A stretch of DNA of 62,700 nucleotides, filler included. It is 5 parts of 5 records of this genome, joined end to end, with 100 filler letters (N's around TTAATTAATTAA, not from the genome) between each part and the next. Parts side by side here need not be neighbours in the genome. Positions count along the whole stretch, not along the records: positions 8,453 to 29,431 come from SRR2962707_4278; 4 more parts are not named here. One strand, given 5' to 3'. Shown here piece after piece: positions 427 to 19,350 of the stretch (position 1 is its first letter; the number at the start of each line of letters is the position of its first letter). The notes below the pieces were generated by a model. The model searched no databases. It had not been told where the DNA came from and worked only from the letters and a program-made list of their open reading frames with translations. Position numbers and translations under genes: made by a program.

Positions 427-3400
427 TCACTGTGCCTGGGCCGACGGGTCATCCAGGAAGAGCAGGGCACTCTTGCCCGAGTCCTGAATATCTTGCACGT
501 GAGAGTATGCGCTCATGATCTTGCGGATCACGGCAGCACCGCCGTGAGCATTCACAATCGCGCCAAAGTCGGGGTGAGCCATGGCAATGAAGTCTAGCGT
601 CTTGATCGCGCGCACCATCAGTTTTTCTTGGTGAGCATGACGCCCAATGGACGCCATGATGACGTTGATACCGTCGTGTTGCACAATTTTTTGCACCCCC
701 GTCTCTTGGAACGCCAAGAAACCCAGCACCTTCAACACCTTGTCAAGCATGTCCGCGTTGTCTTGGTTGGCATTGACAACCTGCATCAACGTGTGCATGC
801 CGTGTTCGGCAATGTACGTGCAGATATTTTGGTTCCCAGCAAGTTGACCAAGACATCCAAGGGCCTCCACCATGAACTCATGTTCAGTTAAATGTTTCCT
901 CATCAACCGCAGAACAGTGTCGATTCCACCCGCTTCCATCACCGTCTCGCGATGCTGACGAGCCGATGAAATCACGTGCAAGGCAATCTGTCCGTTGATG
1001 AGCAGATCAATGTTTTGCTCATGGGTGTCCATGGCCGTCAACAGCATTTGCACGCCCTGCATTTCGGTGAAAATCTCCATCGCTTCCTTTGAATAGCAAA
1101 GAGTCGAGATGAGCTCCACCGTTGGCTCGATAATTTCCTCGTCGTAGTCGTAGCGCTGCATTGTATTAACCACGAGTGGCACCAGCCCTTTGTCCAGCAG
1201 TTTCTCAGCCGTGTCCACATCCTGCGCGATGTCATTGAGTGCCTCGATGGCAGTCAAGAGCAACGAGGTGTTCTCCTCGTTATCTGCAGTAACGCAGTCC
1301 AAGATGGCGTGCGCTCCACCGTCGTTGAAGATTACTTGAGTGACCGTGAGATCGTCTTCGCTCTGAAACGCTTCCTTGATGTCTTCCGATGACTTGGCAA
1401 AGTTGCCAATCACCTTGATTGCTGTTTCCTTAGTATCATCGTCATTTTTGTCCGTGTTCATGTGAACGGTGATGATTTTAATGGCATGTTGGGCCGTCAG
1501 CCAAGCAACATTGGAGTCCAACAATGACATGTTCCCGACGGCTCGCAACGACATGCGGAAAAGAGCTTGGTCGGCGTGGTGCTGCTTGATGGCCTTCAGC
1601 ACTTCGGTGCCGCACTGCTCGCGAACAAGTTCCTTGTTCGGGTCGTTAATGTACATCCAGTTCGACAAATTGGTGAGAGCCACCTCCACAATGCGGACTT
1701 TGTGGTGCAAAACATTGAGGCAAGCCTTGATTGCGCCCACGCCGTCGTGCTTGACCGCCAAGTTGGTGTTCTGCTCCGAGTTGAAAGTCAATTTGCTCAG
1801 CATGGTCAAAATCTGTTTGACAAGCGTTGCATGTTTTGTTGGTTTCGCTGCAAGTTCTTGCGTCTGCTTCACTTCTGCTGGAAGCGTCCAAGACGTTTCC
1901 TTCGTCTTCTTGTTGAAGTAGTATGTGCGGCCTTTCGGGTCAACCGCTTCTCGCCAGTCTGTCGTGAGAGGGTGCTGCCACTGAGTCTTTTGCAACGCCT
2001 TGTTGGCGTAAAATACTCGGCCCTTCTTGTCCACATTTTGGGTCCATCCTTCTGGAAGGTCCATTGCTACTTTTTCAGGTTCCAGCTGGGCACGCAGCGC
2101 CAAAATGATGACTTCGACACCACCCACCCGGCCAATGCGCTGCTTGAAAACATCGTGGTGGGCAAATTTCTCGAGCATCGTCAGGAACACGCGGAGGAGA
2201 GCATCGTTGCCAGGGTGCTTCTTGAGCGCCTTGATAATCACTTCGATACCCATGTTTTCTGCAATCTGCCGCAAGTTGGATTCGTTATCTGCAAGGTAGT
2301 TCAAGGTCTCGGCCAAGGAGGCCACAAAGTCGGCGTCATGCGAGTGCTTTTTGAGCGCATCAATGCAAGCCTTGACGATGGAGGGGTCGACTTCTTCGCC
2401 CTTTCCTTGATATGCACGAATGTGCTCTGCCTGACGCTTGAAGTGCTCCACCATGGCCTGGTACTCTTCAGGCTCGTCCCAGGTGCTTTCCTTGGTCTCA
2501 GAGTTTACGTAGTACATGCGTCCATCCTTGTATGGCACGGCAACATGAGTGGCCCCACGTCCGATCACGTCTTCACATTTCTTTAGGTCCATGCTCAGTT
2601 GACCAGCGCCACGAGACACGTCTGGATACAACGGCTGCACCAGATCCAGAAGGGCCGAACCGTCCTCGCGAATGTGTTCATTCTCCGACTGATACCGATC
2701 CACCACATTACCGATCAAAATGTAGGCCGGCTCATCGAAGCCGTTGGATTGCAGACCTTCAGCACCAAGGAGAATCCCGAACTCGTGCAAGGCCGTAAGC
2801 GCTTGCGCTACAATCAGTGGATGATCCTCATGCTTGGCCACCTTCGCCAAAAGGGCGCGCACAGTATCGTGCTCAACAAGGGTAGTTACACTGGAACTTT
2901 CGCCGTCTACTGCAAGCGCCTGGAATGTTTCCATGGCAAGCATGGACAGTTCTTCGTCATCTTCCTCGCCCACAAGCTGCGTAAGCATGTGTGCAGTCTT
3001 GCCAGACCGCAAAAGCATGGCCTTGAACTTGGGGTTGTTCGAGACCAAGTTCACCAACGAGTTCATGGCAATCGCAACTGTGTGATCGTCTTTGTGCAAA
3101 TCCGCCACGGCCCCAGTTCGTTCAAAAACATTTTGCAAGATATTCATCTGCAAGTCTGTGAGTGAAGTTGCATCGTGCAGGGCGAGACTTGCAATGAAGT
3201 CCACGATCTGGTTCTGCAGCTTTCTTGCTCGCTGCGCATCTACCTCCGACACGAAGCCCACAGGAGGTGACCACACGCTCTTTCCCGCTGCATCTACGTA
3301 ATAGTCCTTGCCCTCTTTCGTTTGAAGGTGTTTCCAGCCCTCTGGGCATCGAGCATGCACCGGTAGGTCCATGAGCTTTGCCAACAGCTCATCACCGTCA

Positions 3401-6304
3401 CCCTTGGCACGCCCCTTGATGAATTGGATGGCTCCAACCATGCCTTGGGGATCCGTAGCACCGAGCACTCCAGCAGCGTTAAGCAGGGTGGCCTCGAAGC
3501 CTTCGGCCAGAAGCGCGTCGAAGTTGTCGAACATTTGCCCGACAAGGCGCTGCAAAACACCTCGTACTTGTTCTGCTGCTTTAAGGTTGCCTCCACTTAC
3601 AGCGAGTGTGTGGGCTTTCTCCAGATGCCGGAGGGCTCCGGCTTGCAGCAGACCCATGACAAGCTCTGGGTCCCGGGCATCCAGCAACAAGTGCAAGGCG
3701 CCGAGCCCCGCTGAATGTAGCGGTGAAAGGTCGTAGCCCTTGTCACCCGACTTCACGGCCGTCGCAGCTGCGACAATGCTGGGGACGCAGTGACTGACAG
3801 ACAAGCCAACGTCAAGCTCAGCCAATTTTCCAATTATTTGCATAGCAGTGGCTTTGATGTTTTCTGCATCCGAAGAGTCGTGAGTGTGCATCACGTTAAG
3901 AATTTCAACAGCCATGTCCAACAATTCTTTGCCGGTAGCCTGTGTAACTGCGCCATCGACGTACACGAGGGACATGAGGCTCGACAACTCCGCTTTGGTG
4001 GCAGCAAACACTTTGGCACCAGTCTGTCCATCCTTGACTTGCTTCACCAACGTTTTCACCTTCTCGATGGCCCGACGCAACAAGTCTTGCGGTGTGAGGA
4101 GCTCGCCAAGAATATTAGCTCCTAAAGTCATCAGTGCTGCGCTGTCCGGATTCGCACCCATGAGTGACATGATGAACTCGTCCGCCTTTGCATCGCAAAG
4201 CATGTCTCTGTGCTGACCATCGCCATGGGCGGCAACCTGCTCCAATAGCTCCAGCATTGCCTGTGGGGCAAGCCTGCCCGTTTTGCAGCCCGGGTGCTTG
4301 TTGAGCAACGAGACCAGCCCTGCGATGTAACCACGGTCGACCAAAGCCGCACAGACAGCTGGATTGGTTGACGCCTGCGAAAAGAGCCGAATCGCAGCTG
4401 CCAGCAGGGTGTCATTGCCAGCTGTTGCTGCCGCTACAGTGCTATCTGAGACCAGCTCAAACAACCCACTGTCCAACAGGCGGCGTGCACTTGCTTCCGA
4501 GCGAGACAATTTCGCTACCAGTTCGAGCGCTGATGCGACGGCTGCATTTTGGGCATCACCCAACCCTTCCCCGCCCGAGCTGTCGTCAAGATTGTACTGC
4601 AGCCACTCCGACGCGATGTCTAATGCCCGAGTGGCAGACACCGCGGCTTGGCCACTTGCATCGTCGCACAATGCTGAAAGCATGTCAAACCCGGCACCAA
4701 CAGTGGAGGCGTCTTCGTCTGTACCTTGAATGCGCGTCAACACGCACTGCAGAGTGGAAGCCGTTGGGTGTGGCACATTGCGCACTTCGCCTGTCGAGAC
4801 ATTGCGCCACACCTTGCGGTCACCCTCAGTTGCCTCGCTCCAATCACTGTTGTCAGAGATGATGGCGGGGATGTTGTTGGCATCGCGAGCCAAGCGCTGA
4901 ACGCAAATAAGTGTCGCCGATGAGCCAGTCCCAGCTTGCAAGTGGTGCAAGATAATGGGCACTGCGTCCGCATACGCACTAGCGGGAACAGTGTTGCCGA
5001 GTTGGCCCAAAGCGTCCAAAACGGTTTCAATGCAAGCCTCTTGGTGATCTGATGGCGGGAGAGCCGACACTGCAATAAGCGAGCGCACCAACGCTGCTGC
5101 ACCACCCTCCCGAACTACAATAGCTCCGTACTCACCAATCCTCACCATGTAACCGATGGCACCAGCCAGGCGGGACAAGTTACCCAGGTCGTTGGGGGTC
5201 ATCTGCTCACCGATCACATTGCTCAAGGACACCAACTGTGCCACCAGTTTCTTCACCATCTCTTCGTCGAACAGCTTGCCAAGCAAATTGAGGCACGACT
5301 GGGCGATTTGCGTATTAGAGCCGCCTTTGGCACGAAGGCAGGCGACTACAGAAGTGCTGCCATCCTGCCTGTTGATGATCGTGCGACCGCTCTCGTCGCG
5401 GCAAACAAGCTCGAGCACTTTCAGTGACAAAAGTAGCACATCATCCACATCGGACGAGTACAACTCAGCACCATCGACGAGATTCAGTAACTGCCGAGAC
5501 CCCCCACGTTGTGCGACAGCTTTAGAACCGGCGTCGTCAGAGGCAAGCTCCATCAGGCCGCGGCAGCTTTCGTCGAGGAGCCGAAGTTTGTTGGCGACGT
5601 TCTTCGCGCTCCCAGCGTCGTCGCCGGGGCTATTGTCACGCAATGCTGCGGCGAACGCCTCCACGATGTTTAGTCCGACAAGCTCAGCCTGGCGACCCTT
5701 AATGCGAGTCAGGGTTCGCAAAAATTGGACTCCGTAGCGAGTTTGCGTTGCGTTTTTGGAGTTCTTCTGAATTTCAGCCAACTCTCGGCCGATGCCATTG
5801 ATTTTCATGTTGAGGGTGTCGAACAATGCCCCGTCGTTGCGGTAGCGAGTGCAGAGCTCGTTCAGCAGGCGGTACACCCCAGAGACAATGCCGCCCTTCT
5901 TGGGTAGCTTTTTCTCCTTGGTCACGGCCACAAACAGCTTGTGCGCGATTTGGTGGCCGTTCTGTGCAACAATGAAGTCCGTGTTGCAAGTGGCGTACGC
6001 TTGCAATGTCATGAGAAGTTTGATGCAGTTTGCCGACTGGACGGCGCCCTTTTTCTCCATGAGCGTCTGTGTGGCCTTTTGCAGGTTGGCGAGCGCCTTC
6101 GAGATCATATCCTCCGTCACCAGGGAGCGCAGCACCTGCGCCCCCGTGCTCTGGATGACCTCGTTTTCGGCATTTGCGCACATCGAATCTACGATGAAAG
6201 CCGCCGCACCCTTGGCAGTCAGTTGCGGGATATTTGCAGGGTCTTGCGAAAGCGTGGAAAGCAGCGACAAGGCAGCTTGCACGATGTCTGGGCGCTCTGG
6301 GTAC
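427..6304 (-). CDS. Exon 2 of a giant armadillo-repeat protein with WW domains (GAC-like; ~2455 aa when spliced)
   Basis: Long uninterrupted ORF ending in TGA at 427-429. Recurring ARM-type helical repeats (GGVEVIILAL, GGIDTVLRLMRKH) and WW motifs (LPEGWTQNVDKKGRVFYANKALQKTQWQHP; DWREAVDPKGRTYYFNKKTKETSWTLP). Joins exon 1 in frame after the AG acceptor at 6306-6305. Confidence 0.85.
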
Positions 6305-6412
6305 CTGCCGTTTTGAAGTGCATTTTGACGGGACTTAGGGGAACGAGGCGGGCAAACACGGCACGAAACGCACCAATCTCAAATATTCCCAACAAGCACA
6401 TCAGACACGTAC
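6305..6412 (-). other. Spliceosomal GT-AG intron, 108 nt
   Basis: Minus strand reads CAAAA|GTACGT...CCCTAAG...ACGGCAG|GTAC. Removing it deletes the only in-frame stop (TGA 6381-6379) and gives ...ENLQK-YPERPDIVQAAL... Confidence 0.85.
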
Positions 6413-7902
6413 TTTTGCAAGTTCTCGAGTGCAATGTCAACACCACCATGCTCAGCGACAATGGCAGCGTTTTCCGTGCTTGTGTCAGCCATTGCACTTA
6501 GCAAAGCCATCGCCATGCCAAGGACTTGGGTGTCGCCGGGATGGGCCCGGATGCAGTTCAGCGCGGCGTCGATACCTCCCTGTTTCACCAGGTCCGGCAC
6601 ACTGTAGTCCAAGTCTACAAGGCGCGTGCAGAAGCGCATTCCATGCAGCGCGACTGCTTTGTCAGCAGCCAGTGACTTGACTGCAGCGACAGCTGCGGCC
6701 ACGCCACCCTGAGCGATCAGACTGTCCAAATTGGCATGGTTGGTCAATAAAACGGACAATGCCTCAAGCGAAGCCGCCACCAACTGCGCGTCACTTCCAT
6801 GCGCCTTGAGGGCGTCCACAAGCGCCTCCACGCCTCCTGCATCCACGATTTCGGCCACAGTGGCATCGTTAATAGCCATTCGTGCAAGCAGAGCAGCGGC
6901 AGAGGCCTTGAGATCCACCGAGGAGTCTGCACCAACCAGCGCATCCATTGCGAGCTTAACCCCGCCAGTTGCAGCAATGTGCGCCGCCTTTTGGCGTTCA
7001 ATGGCAAGGTTAGAAATCAGGCTGAACCCATGAGCGCGCTCGGCCGGTGTGATCCCAGGTTTGCTCAGGCCCTGGAGAATATCCTCAAATGTAGCGGCTG
7101 TCAGGCGGCTGAGCAATCTCCCGCCGACGGCAGTCACAGCTTCGTTGTTTTGGCGCGAGTCTAACACTGCGACCACGCCATTGATAGCAGCGTCAACATC
7201 GAGTTGCTCCAAATTTTCGGTCTGGAGGCAGACGCGGTTGATGCAGCGAAGGCCACTCAGCACGCTGTCATCCGTGGCGCCGACGAACGTAAAAGAATCG
7301 AGCAGGCATTGTGGTCCACCGCAATTGAGGAACGCTTCGCGGCCGGCTGGCGTTTTGCAGATGAGTTCCACGGCACGGTTGCAGGCACCTTGCACGTGGG
7401 GGGAGTCCTGAAATTGTGCGGCGCACTTGAGGATGGCCCGAATGTGGTCTTCGTCGGCCATAGACTGGGCGTTGCGCTCAGCCGCGCTCAGCAGCAGAGA
7501 TGCAGCGTTCTCCACGCTTTCGGGCCTCAAATCAGCCATGTTTTGCATAGACTCGACGATGCCGAGCACGGCCCCGCTTTCAACCAACATCTTAGTGTAG
7601 CGCTTGCCATTGCGATAGTTCTTGGGCACCCGCGCAAGGATCTTCGAGCAGTACCCAAACACGTCCTCATCATGAGGGTACAACTTCAAAATGTCGGAAA
7701 GCTGCTCGATGCCACCGTTCGCAACGAGGTCGTCCACATTGGCATTCCAGTCGTTGTTCACAGGGTCGATGCTCTTGCACAGGGTGTCGAGCGCGAAGGA
7801 GCACATCTGCTTGAACTTCTTGTGTTTCTTGAGCGCCGACAGCAGCGTGTGGATTCCATCGCCGCCCCCGCTGCTCTTGGAACGCTTCGGTCCCTTGGGC
7901 AT
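6413..7902 (-). CDS. Exon 1 of the giant armadillo-repeat protein
   Basis: ATG at 7902 (MPKGPKRSK). ARM repeats (GGVEALVDALKAHGSDAQLVAASLEAL). Same frame as exon 2. Confidence 0.85.
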
Positions 7903-15780: not shown

Positions 15781-16695
15781 ATGGCGGTCGATCTGAATGC
15801 CTATGCCGTTTACGCCAAGGTGGTGGAGCTGGGCGGCTTCACGGCCGCTGCCGATGCGCTCGGCCTCTCGAAATCCATGGTGAGCCGCCAGATTTCGACG
15901 CTGGAAGATGCGCTTGGCGTGCGGCTTCTCAACCGGACGACGCGGCGGATCGCCGTGACGGAGGCGGGGGCGGTCGTGTTCGAGCGGGCGCAGCGGATCG
16001 TCATGGAGGCGCAGGAGGCCGCCGAAGAGGCGACCTGCGTCGAAGGCGCGGTGCGCGGCCAGCTCCGCGTCAATGCGCCGATGAGCTTCGGCATTGCTCA
16101 GCTCGGGCCCGTGATGCCGGAGTTCATGGCGCGCTATCCCGAGCTCAATGTCGATCTCGTGCTGAACGACAGGCGCGTCAACCTGATCGAGGAAGGCTTC
16201 GACGTCAGCTTGCGCATTTCGGCGCTGACGGATTCAAGCCTGATCGCGCGGCAGCTCGCGCCCGTCGAGCGCTACATCGTGGGGTCGCCTTCCTATTTCG
16301 AGAAGCACGAGGTGCCGAAGCGCCCGGCCGATCTCGCAGGTCACGACTTCATGCTCTACACGCTGCTCGCGCGGCCGAACCTTCTCGAAATGGAGAATGC
16401 ACAGGGCGAGAAAGAGCAGGTCGAACTGAAGGGCCGCTTTCTCTGCAACAATGCGGACGCGATGGTCGAGATGATGCTCAAGGGCATGGGGCTTGTCTTC
16501 TCGCCCGACGTGCTTTGCCACCAGCACCTGAAGAGCGGCGCGCTTGTCCGTGTGCTGAAGGACTGGACCGTGCCCGCGCTGACGCTCCACGTTCTCTATC
16601 CACATTCGCGGCATCTGGCGGCGAAGGTGCGGGCGTTCGTCGATTTCACGGTGGAAAAGTTCGGACCGGGGAGGGCGCCGTGGGTGGAGATGTAA
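15781..16695 (+). CDS. LysR-family regulator (CrgA-like), divergent from wrbA
   Basis: GGFTAAADALGLSKSMVSRQISTLEDALGVRLLNRTTR HTH; EEGFDVSLRI. Confidence 0.95.
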   Translation: MAVDLNAYAVYAKVVELGGFTAAADALGLSKSMVSRQISTLEDALGVRLLNRTTRRIAVTEAGAVVFERAQRIVMEAQEAAEEATCVEGAVRGQLRVNAPMSFGIAQLGPVMPEFMARYPELNVDLVLNDRRVNLIEEGFDVSLRISALTDSSLIARQLAPVERYIVGSPSYFEKHEVPKRPADLAGHDFMLYTLLARPNLLEMENAQGEKEQVELKGRFLCNNADAMVEMMLKGMGLVFSPDVLCHQHLKSGALVRVLKDWTVPALTLHVLYPHSRHLAAKVRAFVDFTVEKFGPGRAPWVEM

Positions 16696-16805
16696 AAAGG
16701 CGGACCGTCTGGCTCGGTGTTTAAAGTAATTTTCTGTTCAATGATCGAGACTGCCAATTCGAAGTGAGCAGGGTGTCTATGTTCCCGATCAACGGCCGAA
16801 GCTTG

Positions 16806-17711
16806 TCACGAAAAACCATACTCATGAATGTCTCCGTACGCACCGTGGTAGCAGAGGGGAGTTGACTCAATTGGAGGCGCTACGACCAATTCCAGTTGTC
16901 CCAAGTCCATTCCTTGTATGAAAGGTGCGAACGCGACCACCCGCTTTTGCACTGCTGGCAGTGGAGCCGAAAAGATACAAGGCTTTCCATTATTCTGCGT
17001 CTTAAGTGTCCATGTTTGGGCGAATTGTTCCGTCAAGCTCAGAGCAAACGAGTAGGAGCTGAGGTAGTGGAGTTCTTGACGGGTTTCCGTTACGAAAGGC
17101 ATGTAGACACCTCGGCGTATATAGAGCTCATTGATCGAAGTGGCGCCTCCATTGTCGAGACTATCCAGATAGTCTGGAATAAACGTGTCCAACAAATTCG
17201 CATTGATATCGAAAATTGCTTTCATTTCGCACGGTGCAAAAGTGGCCGTCGCATTCTCATCGATAGGATTCAACACAAAATTTCCCGCGGATGATCCGTG
17301 ATAGAAAATATCATGCTGATGTATAGCTGCCTTGATGCCTTTTATATTGGGAGAATTCTGCCGACGGCTTAGGCCATCGACCCAGTCTTTTGCGAAGCTC
17401 TCGACGAAAATGTCAAGCCTAGCTATGTCGACACCGGCATCCTCTACGCGCGCGCGAAATTCTGCAGCCCAGTCGGCCTGCTTCGATTTGAAAAACCCGA
17501 GTTTCTTAAGTGTGTGTTCGGGATCGCTGATAGTCTTCACGCCGGAAGCATAAGCAGTCCGTGGCACATCATCCGTGTCACTGTTACTGTGGAGCAATCG
17601 CTGAAAAGCTAGGGGATCTCTGAGATTCGATTCGAGGGTTGCGTATTTCAGAAGGTGACCTGGCTGCCAATTATCCAGAAATACGTCATAGTCGTCGCTA
17701 TCTACCGTCAT
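16806..17711 (-). CDS. Hypothetical protein with C-terminal R-S-E ADP-ribosyltransferase-like motifs
   Basis: 301 aa; LYIRRG (R199/R200), LSSYS (S219-x-S221), GQLELVV (Q272-x-E274); low GC; ATG overlaps the upstream stop. Confidence 0.65.
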   Translation of the reverse strand: MTVDSDDYDVFLDNWQPGHLLKYATLESNLRDPLAFQRLLHSNSDTDDVPRTAYASGVKTISDPEHTLKKLGFFKSKQADWAAEFRARVEDAGVDIARLDIFVESFAKDWVDGLSRRQNSPNIKGIKAAIHQHDIFYHGSSAGNFVLNPIDENATATFAPCEMKAIFDINANLLDTFIPDYLDSLDNGGATSINELYIRRGVYMPFVTETRQELHYLSSYSFALSLTEQFAQTWTLKTQNNGKPCIFSAPLPAVQKRVVAFAPFIQGMDLGQLELVVAPPIESTPLCYHGAYGDIHEYGFS

Positions 17712-18397
17712 GTCGTTCGTTTCATGCGTGCCGACAAACGACGGTATTCTCCCTCGATATGTTTGAGTAGCGCAGACTCGTCGCTGGTCAAATGGGCGTA
17801 TTCGGGCTCTTCGTAGCGAGAACGATGGGCGCGTCGGGTGAGATGAAATATCTCTTCGTCGGCGTAGTTTGCGTGCTCTTTTACGAGTTCGACAATTTGC
17901 GACAATGGAAAATCACCACCAAACTCAATCTCAGAGCTTGATGACATTCGTCGGTCGAAAAGGGCTCGCCAAGCTTGCTTAAGCCCTACCCAACGACGGC
18001 GATAAGCCCTTAGTTCGGTGAGTGCATGTTTGAGCCGCTGCCGAAAATAGGGAAACGCTGTGCTGTTCGTGTGCGTCACATGTAGCGTTAAAAACAGCGC
18101 TGCCAAAGGGCGATATAGATTGAAGAGCTTCTCTCTATCGCGCTCAATGGCACGGCGGCGGCGATTGAAGAGATAGACAAACGTCGACCACCCAAGTTTG
18201 CAAACAGTTAGAACTACCGTCACGAAAAGGGCTGGTGGCACAAGCGGTCTAATTGGTTCGGGCAGCGAAGAAGCCAATGGCATCCACAACCAGAACAGCA
18301 AAAGTGAAATAACAGCTCCAATCATCAACCAGTCAGGCGCTGATTTGAGCGTCTCGGTTACCTTTTGAATTGTGGTTAAACCGCTAGCGCCATCCAT
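17708..18397 (-). CDS. Hypothetical membrane protein with two N-terminal TM helices (229 aa)
   Basis: GAGGG RBS before the ATG at 18397 (MDGASG); hydrophobic WLMIGAVISLLLFWLWMPL and LVPPALFVTVVLTVCKLGWSTFVYLF followed by NRRRR; low GC. Confidence 0.75.
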   Translation of the reverse strand: MDGASGLTTIQKVTETLKSAPDWLMIGAVISLLLFWLWMPLASSLPEPIRPLVPPALFVTVVLTVCKLGWSTFVYLFNRRRRAIERDREKLFNLYRPLAALFLTLHVTHTNSTAFPYFRQRLKHALTELRAYRRRWVGLKQAWRALFDRRMSSSSEIEFGGDFPLSQIVELVKEHANYADEEIFHLTRRAHRSRYEEPEYAHLTSDESALLKHIEGEYRRLSARMKRTT

Positions 18398-18435
18398 TCT
18401 GTCGTCCCTCAGCCTGGACCCTCTGTATTGACTGC

Positions 18436-19350
18436 TTACACCGGTTCCCAGGTAAAGACGGAAGCCGTTGCCCCGAGGTCGGTGTAGCCGCCTTCCATCG
18501 CCGGGATGCCGTGGCTGAGAATGGTTTCCGGCGTCCAGCCATCGACGCGGGCCACGCTTTTCACGGGGCGGGGCTGGGAGAAGAGGACGATCTCGTTGCC
18601 GCGCACGGAGAATATCTGGCCGCTTGTCTTGCACTCGGGCGAGGCCAGGGCGACGGAGAAGTTGGCGACCTGTTCGGCGCGCATCGCATTCTTCATGCGC
18701 TCGACGCGCTGCGCCGATGCCTCGTCCTTTACCGGGATTGTCGCGATCATGCGCGTCCAGGCGAAGGGCGCGATGATGTTGGAACGCACGTTCTTCTTCT
18801 CGCCTTCCATCGCGATGATGCGCGAGAGACCGGCAATGCCCATCTTGGCGGCGGCGTAGTTCGCCTGGCCGATATTGCCGATGAGGCCGGAGGTCGAGGT
18901 GAAGAGGACGAAGCTGCCTTCTTCCTGTTCGCGGAAGTGATTGATCGCCGCGCGCGTGATGTTGTAGCTGCCCTTCAGATGCACTTCGAGGACGGCGTCC
19001 CAGTCTTCGTCGGGCATCTTGTGGAACATGCCGTCGCGGAGAATGCCGGCCGGGCTGATGATCGAGTGGAGGCCGCCGAAGGTGTCGAGCGCCTGCGCGA
19101 TCATGTTTTCCGCGCCGGACTTCATCGACACGCTGTCGGAGTTGGCGACGGCTTCGCCGCCCGCCTTCTTGATTTCGTCGACGGTCTTCTGCGCGGCGCT
19201 CGCGTCGCCCGCATCGCCGCCCTTCACGCTGCCGCCGAGATCGTTCACGACGACCTTCGCGCCCTGCGCTGCCGCGATCATCGCACATTCCTTGCCGATG
19301 CCGCCTGCCGCGCCGGTGACGAGCACGACCTTGCCTTCCAGAATTCCCAT
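18436..19350 (-). CDS. SDR family oxidoreductase (hydroxyacyl-CoA dehydrogenase-like)
   Basis: VTGAAGGIG, VVVNDLGG, GQANYAAAK. Confidence 0.93.
   Translation of the reverse strand: MGILEGKVVLVTGAAGGIGKECAMIAAAQGAKVVVNDLGGSVKGGDAGDASAAQKTVDEIKKAGGEAVANSDSVSMKSGAENMIAQALDTFGGLHSIISPAGILRDGMFHKMPDEDWDAVLEVHLKGSYNITRAAINHFREQEEGSFVLFTSTSGLIGNIGQANYAAAKMGIAGLSRIIAMEGEKKNVRSNIIAPFAWTRMIATIPVKDEASAQRVERMKNAMRAEQVANFSVALASPECKTSGQIFSVRGNEIVLFSQPRPVKSVARVDGWTPETILSHGIPAMEGGYTDLGATASVFTWEPV

Follow-up and report, generated by a model that had tools for sequence, protein, structure and literature searches.

What occupies the stretch of lowest G+C content (GC) in a 62.7-kb window (the whole stretch of DNA analysed here), and in what kind of biology might the enzyme encoded there take part? 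The islet in question measures 1.74 kb, lies between a LysR gene and an SDR gene, and holds two genes, both on the minus strand: an upstream gene for a 229-aa protein with two transmembrane (TM) segments and, joined to it by an ATGA overlap, a gene for a 301-aa protein with the predicted fold and catalytic residues of an R-S-E ADP-ribosyltransferase (ART). Our best reading is that the 301-aa protein belongs to a stand-alone Q-x-E ART family, not previously described, that is used in genetic conflict. An initial annotation, made from the DNA letters, had pointed to a sharp drop in GC, to exactly two co-oriented open reading frames (ORFs) sharing this overlap, and to horizontal acquisition. Both 60-nt counts are reproduced exactly (45/60 G+C at 16021-16080 vs 22/60 at 17161-17220), as are the two ORFs and the overlap at 17708-17711; the strand had gone unstated. 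The GC of the islet, 0.499, is the minimum among all 1740-bp windows of the 62.7 kb (median 0.621), and GC at third codon positions (GC3) is 0.52 and 0.51 in its two genes vs 0.84 in LysR and 0.86 in SDR. Because this is the lowest-GC composition in the window, the islet looks foreign, and it appears to have been acquired horizontally, as had been suggested.

The 301-aa protein lacks hydrophobic segments (Kyte-Doolittle maximum of 1.22 over 19 residues), so it is expected to be cytoplasmic, with no TM segment and, as noted initially, no signal peptide. Its AlphaFold2 (AF2) model, built on an alignment of 41 sequences, has a predicted local distance difference test (pLDDT) score of 92.1 and a predicted TM-score (pTM) of 0.89. 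In a Foldseek comparison of this model with the PDB, 39 of the 41 rows listed are named ADP-ribosyltransferases, the other two being anthrax lethal factor. Vis toxin ranks first (E 8.9e-4, probability 1.00), and further ART matches among the rows listed are C3, Certhrax, ExoS/ExoT, XopAI, CDTa, C2-I, Ia, ART2.2, VIP2, Plx2a, and Tre1. In BFVD, a separate library of predicted viral structures, phage ADP-ribosyltransferases head the fold matches, with an RNA-polymerase ART among the top ones.

Read along the protein, the motifs singled out initially occur in the proposed order: LYIRRG (R199/R200), LSSYSFALSLTEQFA (S219, S221), followed by a helix at residues 224-230 of the AF2 model, and GQLELVV (Q272, E274). 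Only six columns (W110, R200, G201, S219, F230, and E274) do not vary across 77 family members with identities as low as 20%, and three of these, R200, S219, and E274, form the predicted catalytic triad on which the initial assignment hinged. At least 90% conserved in the same alignment are E213, Y220, E228, F261, Q272, and P279, of which Q272 is invariant in the 41-sequence alignment. With codons read by hand from the sequence and secondary structure taken from the AF2 model, the R / S-x-S / [QE]-x-E order and the strand placement of these residues correspond to the canonical R-S-E layout, as motifs and layout are defined in PMC8120803 and PMC12945103. The motif of the ARTT loop (for ADP-ribosylating turn-turn) reads G267-M268-D269-L270-G271-Q272-L273-E274, with a family consensus of G-M-D-L-x-Q-L-E; at the third position of X-X-phi-X-X-[EQ]-X-E, where PMC8120803 and PMC12945103 place an aromatic residue, it has Asp269 instead. 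Fold alignments to ARTs of 200-220 residues span 250-297 columns. Judging from the model, the N-terminal region of ~190 aa, which had been left as unassigned, at least partly corresponds to the helical N-terminal part of C3/Vis-type ARTs; it is conserved family-wide. With the fold search and the invariant triad, on the expected secondary-structure elements, pointing the same way, the 301-aa protein very probably belongs to the Q-x-E type of R-S-E (cholera-toxin-like) ADP-ribosyltransferases, as the initial annotation had proposed, and we consider it likely that it is active as such an enzyme.

The protein is also a member of a genuine, unannotated family, as judged by sequence comparison. It has no meaningful match in Pfam, NCBIfam, PADLOC v2.0.0, or PHROG, which agrees with the earlier statement that no named system was recognised. 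A word-indexed search gave 188 homologues at E<=0.01, none annotated and mostly alphaproteobacterial; the best 120 of these are ~230-345 aa long, and the named ones are labelled 'hypothetical'. Run exhaustively on 1.84 billion representatives, HMMER returned 150 clusters with E<=0.001; 95 of these reach E<=1e-10 and 31 reach E<=1e-30. Almost all family matches are full-length, so the N-terminal half is passed on together with the C-terminal one, and no Pfam domain was found in the extensions of seven longer members (334-473 aa, including proteins of 422 and 473 aa). Named carriers include Rhizobium, Bradyrhizobium, Komagataeibacter, Roseibium, Microvirga, Pelagibacterium, Anderseniella, and Parvibaculaceae, with Ensifer, Gluconobacter, and a TARA contig as further carriers. 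A pattern scan of a one-genome-per-species collection (185,579 species), which sets a floor, found at least 17 ART loci; none of 400 class-level genomes matched, and in a positive control on five known carriers, four were matched once each, and the fifth has just a 33-codon remnant. The family is thus rare and single-copy. A word search of the literature, which cannot find families by sequence, returned no description of it, and supplementary tables of defence candidates (PDC lists, DefensePredictor) might list it.

The identity of the best fold matches, which are toxins and effectors aimed at hosts (Vis, C3, ExoS/T, XopAI), together with the plant- or insect-associated habit of Rhizobium, Bradyrhizobium, Ensifer, Microvirga, Komagataeibacter, and Gluconobacter, raises the question of whether this is a C3-like Q-x-E ART delivered by a type III, IV, or VI secretion system against a eukaryotic host; a low-GC WW/ARM-repeat protein of 1951 aa is, moreover, encoded in the same window. 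We regard such a secreted effector as very improbable. No secretion-system, chaperone, Rhs, PAAR, or VgrG neighbours were seen, no delivery domain is recognisable in the longer homologues (422 and 473 aa), and free-living marine bacteria (Roseibium, Anderseniella, Pelagibacterium, and the TARA contig) carry the gene too. It is absent from 72,556 plasmids, those of Bradyrhizobium included, and the AbiU, OLD, and restriction-modification company described below favours conflict among prokaryotes.

The second gene of the islet encodes the two hydrophobic segments expected from the initial description (Kyte-Doolittle maxima of 2.19 and 1.80). Positively charged flanks of TM segments lie on the cytoplasmic side (the positive-inside rule), and residues 78-100, directly after the second segment, carry a net charge of +5, which places the C-terminal domain in the cytoplasm. 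This domain, a helical region of ~150 aa after NRRRR, is basic (26 K+R vs 20 D+E), whereas the ART is acidic (25 vs 39). An alignment of nine partner sequences has 39 invariant columns, and the M1-D2 start is common to the homologues. The partner has no meaningful match in the same four family libraries, and its AF2 model from the nine sequences (pLDDT 55.9, pTM 0.27) is too poor for a fold search. A complex prediction of the ART with partner residues 84-229 gave an interface score (ipSAE) of 0.00 in two runs without controls and bears neither way on an interaction.

The initial annotation had proposed a two-gene module, and this part of its interpretation does not hold as stated, nor does that of an unassigned N-terminal region, while the ART enzyme, its novelty to the libraries, and the foreign islet stand. 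We fetched 48 ART loci (17 genomes, 28 metagenomes, and 3 viral contigs; numbered with an L), of which 41 extend 700 bp or more upstream of the ART. Using tblastn, the partner was found adjoining the ART in two of these 41, L017 and L029, a third match (L005, E 0.3, non-adjacent) being treated as chance; among 5.8 billion protein clusters the partner family numbers 7 homologues. In L017 (6001-7156; an uncultured alphaproteobacterial metagenome-assembled genome), the partner is full-length with 57% identity and its gene intact, and an insertion sequence (IS) element cuts the downstream ART after ~33 codons; the 338-aa ORF of this element shares 84% identity with 'integrase core domain' genes present in multiple copies on Bradyrhizobium plasmids. 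In L029, the partner is truncated to its last 51 residues and the ART frame is interrupted. In the remaining loci, the ART stands next to divergently oriented neighbours or behind unrelated genes, most intact copies have no conserved neighbour, and the upstream proteins are mutually unrelated, save for one pair. The pairing of the two genes is thus lineage-specific and not a conserved system.

These observations bear directly on whether the islet encodes a toxin-antitoxin or immunity pair, in which a constitutively toxic ART would be restrained by the two-TM protein as its dedicated antitoxin. The gene order, with the antitoxin-like gene first, and the ATGA overlap, which is kept in all three partner-bearing loci (the window, L017, and L029), would suit such a pair, as would the opposite charges of the partner C-terminal domain and the ART. 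So would L017 and L029, in each of which the ART is disrupted, with the partner retained in L017, though itself truncated in L029. Nevertheless, we judge a dedicated pair to be improbable: with the partner in just two of 41 loci and no other conserved neighbour in its place, intact ART genes persist without it, which argues against an antitoxin role, and among the neighbours scanned, which were not every neighbour, there is no macro, ARH, NADAR, or known antitoxin family.

The one related pair of upstream proteins occurs in L013 (5280-5849), a Gluconobacter genome, and L022 (499-1140), a TARA ocean contig. These neighbours of ~190-210 aa, ~90-140 bp ahead of the ART, are 82% identical to each other and have no Pfam family; this protein could represent another lineage-specific partner.

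In soil and marine bacteria, the ART family often keeps company with defence and mobile-element genes (Table 1), a proximity that the initial annotation had proposed to test for homologues. Furthermore, the GC of the ART gene is below that of its own locus in 32 of 42 tabulated loci.

Table 1 Features of the islet and its flanks in the window, and genes found beside the ART in related loci
Feature	Position or locus	Strand	Basis or remark
LysR gene, islet flank	15781-16695	+	Pfam
Low-GC islet, LysR stop to SDR stop	16696..18435	.	GC 0.499, GC3 ~0.51
Gene, 301-aa cytoplasmic protein of predicted R-S-E (Q-x-E) ADP-ribosyltransferase fold (P0001)	16806..17711	-	ORF, homologues, AF2, Foldseek
Codons Q272-L273-E274, Q-x-E	16890..16898	-	E274 invariant in 77/77; directly before and at strand 274-277
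Codons S219-Y220-S221, S-x-S motif	17049..17057	-	S219 invariant in 77/77, S221 in 41/41; strand 218-221, then helix 224-230
Codons R199-R200, predicted Arg of the R-S-E triad	17112..17117	-	R200 invariant in 77/77, R199 in 41/41; strand 197-204
ATGA stop/start overlap of partner and ART genes	17708..17711	-	Sequence; same overlap in L017 and L029
Gene, 229-aa two-TM partner (P0003) with basic C-terminal domain, predicted cytoplasmic	17708..18397	-	Translation, homologue alignment
Partner TM segment 2, ~residues 52-77, then NRRRR	18167..18244	-	Kyte-Doolittle 1.76-1.80 at residues 52-56
Partner TM segment 1, ~residues 22-44	18266..18334	-	Kyte-Doolittle 19-residue maximum 2.19 at residue 24
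SDR gene, islet flank	18436-19350	-	Pfam
AIPR/AbiU	L009, 21 bp upstream of ART		PADLOC E 8e-62
IetA-like AAA protease	L009
DUF2326/PDC-M68B	L007
OLD-type TOPRIM proteins	L025, L029
ResIII helicase-endonuclease	L013
Type II methylase and AAA protein	L028
PLD nuclease	L026
Ppl-like ATPase	L008
DUF932 and RadC, flanking ART	L018
MobA/VirD2 relaxase	L027
Topoisomerase III	L004, 41 bp upstream of ART
Integrases, AlpA-like gene	L003, L040/41		Integrases by eye

Two groups of loci share further neighbours. In the related rhizobial-type loci L006, L019, and L021, a conserved protein of 330 aa, whose L006 copy matches no Pfam family, is encoded ~1 kb downstream of the ART on the opposite strand; it is followed in L006 and L021 by a 196-aa ORF that resembles, by eye, an SOS-response-associated peptidase, and in L006 a DnaE2-like ORF of ~1100 aa lies upstream of the ART. 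In the Rhodobacteraceae-type loci L001/L020 and L014, the ART (GC 0.50-0.52) abuts structural genes of GC 0.66-0.68 that look by eye like those of phage tails or gene-transfer agents, and a GDP-mannose dehydratase gene comes after it, which suggests that the ART was inserted at the edge of a prophage-like cluster.

In the window, the wider neighbourhood of the islet by Pfam (pirin, a WrbA-type flavoprotein, LysR, SDR, and ZnuA) consists of ordinary chromosomal genes, and the partner gene starts just 38 bp from the SDR stop. The edges of the islet have only chance-sized direct or inverted repeats (10-21 nt), no tRNA-like feature marks an insert, Rfam has no match in the whole window, and a promoter and terminator scan of the islet gave no excess over shuffled sequences. 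A comparison with 31 relatives for an empty site found the SDR gene, at roughly 50% identity, as the common gene and no synteny, so the insertion boundaries are not settable by comparison; nor did tblastn reveal a source of the islet in the plasmid and phage records. Elsewhere in the window, on the minus strand, 427-6282 encodes the 1951-aa protein mentioned above, in which ARMC5-type armadillo repeats accompany two WW domains (E 1e-29); an adjoining gene at 6379-7902 encodes a 507-aa armadillo-repeat protein. The pair is likewise low in GC (0.51-0.55), and its eukaryote-like domains, unusual for an alphaproteobacterium, suggest either an effector of host interaction or a further block gained by horizontal transfer.

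Which named family stands nearest to the ART in sequence? Among the matches to its language-model features in the ESM-Atlas, 13 of 30 are clusters of DraT (PF07357), with scores of 0.95-0.96, right after the protein's own kind. True DraT genes, fetched for comparison, were matched in 9/151 class-level and 30/401 phylum-level genomes, 29 of these 30 exceeding the family cut-off; PF07357 scores them at 320-369 bits, and the nine class-level genes adjoin nifH- and DraG-like ORFs, recognised by eye. Using hhalign, a narrow alignment of the ART family gave nothing useful against DraT. The 77-sequence profile, compared with 9 and then with 36 DraT sequences, scored 27-28 (E 0.003-0.004, probability 9%) over 92-94 columns, the comparison with 36 giving a score of 27.3, E 0.004, and a probability of 8.6%. 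The motifs fall in register, Y-R-R-G, S-S-Y-S, and P-G-M...Q-L-E of the family facing L-Y-R-G, N-S-F-T, and P-G-M-L-K-G-E-x-E of DraT. The real score lies above all 31 controls, namely the DraT alignment in reverse (13.9) and 30 block-shuffled versions of it (21.4 at most). On these alignments, DraT is weakly supported as the nearest sequence family, by a resemblance that is above background and in register and that lies below Pfam detection. The fold search of the PDB could not have returned DraT because no DraT structure exists, according to PMC8120803, which also describes DraT homologues as restricted to some nitrogen fixers.

Membership in DraT itself is rejected, since PF07357 detects neither the 301-aa protein nor any of the 41 family members at E<=10, the ARTT motif has Q-x-E where DraT has the arginine-specific E-x-E (as G-E-x-E), and no nifH- or DraG-like neighbours of the ART were seen in the window or the examined loci. 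The same observations bear on a housekeeping role like that of DraT, i.e., the reversible switch-off of one metabolic enzyme on a physiological signal. That DraT is the sole named family recovered by sequence-type methods would agree with this role, as would the similar size (~300 aa) and cytoplasmic location of the two proteins; the membrane sequestration described for DraT/DraG regulation (PMC8120803) also echoes the membrane partner encoded here. Both families appear to be of the R-S-E clade, single-domain, roughly 260-300 aa long, and proteobacterial. However, the gene studied here is mobile, rare, and often broken, and this patchy, low-GC, often pseudogenised distribution is unlike that of a metabolic regulator, which, together with the Q-x-E motif and the lack of draG/nifH linkage, leaves such a role decidedly unlikely.

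As a plausible mechanism for the preferred reading, the conflict-effector ART, we propose that the enzyme belongs to the R-S-E clade and works in the cytoplasm as an NAD+-dependent mono-ADP-ribosyltransferase, with a C3/Vis-like fold and a sequence very distantly like that of DraT. Its gene would move as single-gene cargo of defence islands and of integrative or conjugative elements, and would have arrived here as a 1.7-kb low-GC insert. The enzyme would be kept silent during normal growth; once triggered, for instance by infection, it would transfer ADP-ribose to an acceptor other than arginine on an essential macromolecule of the host or the invader and thereby stop growth or replication. 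By analogy with C3 and ScARP/Scabin, Q-x-E points to an acceptor other than arginine, which may be another side chain or a nucleic-acid base. Where it occurs, here and in a few relatives, the translationally coupled upstream two-TM partner may tether or gate the enzyme at the inner membrane. For the combined statement, an ART used in genetic conflict as an effector of defence or abortive infection, we estimate a probability of roughly 0.45.

Several observations weigh against this reading. The Foldseek matches in the PDB have TM-scores of 0.20-0.45 and root-mean-square deviations of 8-18 Å, so the match is local or topological and not a tight superposition. Single-sequence and profile searches of PDB chains returned chance-level matches and no ART, the Pfam ART and DraT models match none of the 41 family members even at E<=10, the hhalign probability for DraT is 4-10% across comparisons, and the PADLOC-DB v2.0.0 system models gave no family for either islet protein at E<=10. 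In the window, moreover, the islet is surrounded by housekeeping genes with no defence island. Of ten ART-locus neighbours submitted to PADLOC, eight matched its models, a figure that is biased because these neighbours were picked for their defence-like Pfam labels; the relaxase, DUF932, RadC, and topoisomerase III speak for cargo of conjugative elements as much as for host defence. With tblastn, the ART is found in none of 72,556 plasmid or 50,697 phage records. Finally, at least 12 of the 48 loci (L011, L015, L016, L017, L029, L036, L038, L039, L043, L040, L041, and L045) have interrupted or remnant ART copies inside the contig, some of them near-duplicates of one another and with metagenomic frameshifts that may be assembly errors; these broken copies fit dispensable cargo as well as a costly toxin.

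The low TM-scores and the silence of sequence profiles, along with the ARTT loop without its aromatic residue, could also mean that the protein is not an active transferase at all, i.e., that it is an ART-fold NADase, an NAD-binding pseudoenzyme, or the product of a misleading fold prediction. Some R-S-E relatives do act as NADases or NAD phosphorylases (PMC9503650). The complete and invariant R / S / Q-x-E set is nevertheless hard to explain without catalysis, and two independent structure libraries agree on the ART fold, so we give this explanation little weight.

A more serious question is on whose behalf the enzyme acts. The ART could be cargo with which an integrative or conjugative element modifies a host protein or a defence component to aid its own establishment, by analogy with T4 Alt/ModA and AcrIF11; PMC8120803 lists Alt, ModA, and the anti-CRISPR AcrIF11 as ARTs. 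The conjugative or integrative neighbours in L027, L018, L004, L003, and L040/41 point in this direction, as do the phage enzymes, including the RNA-polymerase ART, among the top viral fold matches, and a gene that is tolerated without an antitoxin-like partner would suit such cargo. In turn, the plasmid and phage records hold no copy, defence genes stand alone without transfer genes in L009 (AbiU), L025/L029 (OLD), and L028 (methylase), and the islet in the window is free of any element genes. A weapon of mobile elements seems to us unlikely.

ADP-ribosyltransferases are a well-known enzyme class and recurrent weapons in bacterial conflicts, and new families of them are reported regularly. 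To our knowledge, each new ART family to be characterised has so far added a target chemistry not seen before, on DNA thymidine, guanine, cytidine, mRNA, the 2'-OH of rRNA, or FtsZ. What is new here is a family missed by all the libraries queried, its stand-alone setting in conflict islands without an antitoxin, the faint link to DraT, and the rare membrane partner. The family is, furthermore, the sole thing outside nitrogen fixers with any sequence-type resemblance to DraT, so its structure or target could shed light on how nitrogenase switch-off arose as well as on defence biology. In a bolder form, which we consider rather doubtful, this would be an undescribed stand-alone immune ART family, sister to the lineage behind DraT, in which the Q-x-E active site modifies a nucleic-acid base, or a residue other than arginine, in a component of a phage or of replication, and the two-TM protein serves, in this lineage, as a sensor that releases or activates the enzyme on envelope breach. 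If true, it would amount to a new single-enzyme logic of abortive infection and to a first hint of the origin of DraT, domesticated as a nitrogenase regulator. The protein is small, soluble, and apparently tolerated without an antitoxin, and thus easy to test; if the family were merely decaying cargo without a phenotype, the cost of finding out would be low.

Compared with known enzymes, the closest structural matches are Vis of Vibrio splendidus (PDB 4xzj) and C3bot (1g24), which have the helical N-terminal part and the beta-sandwich core in common with the modelled 301-aa protein, at a sequence identity of 10-12% and TM-scores of 0.3-0.45. C3 exoenzymes carry a G-Q-L-E motif, as does the protein from the islet, which, in other traits of a C3-like exoenzyme, has no hydrophobic N-terminus and no match to the Pfam ADP-ribosyl exotoxin domain. 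The pierisin, Scabin, and ScARP group is absent from the fold matches listed for our protein, and its members are secreted with an N-terminal TM signal (PMC12945103); the stacking aromatic Trp159 of ScARP has no counterpart at the aligned motif position. What the two groups are predicted to share is the Q-x-E motif in an R-S-E enzyme, with a Gln in the ARTT motif that, in ScARP, hydrogen-bonds the guanine base (PMC12945103).

Among conflict systems, Tre1, of Tre1-Tri1 (PDB 6drh), appears in the fold matches at rank 49 (E 0.35), and DarT is of the H-Y-E family, not R-S-E, as PMC12945103 has it. A named system of the DarTG kind is rejected, and one of the CmdTAC kind seems unlikely, for the islet, which has no PADLOC match and no antitoxin or chaperone neighbour. 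Unlike systems of the Tre1-Tri1, DarTG, and ParST type, the family described here has no conserved cognate antitoxin, immunity, hydrolase, or chaperone gene; like Tre1-Tri1, DarTG, ParST, and CmdTAC, it would employ a cytoplasmic ART as the effector in a genetic conflict.

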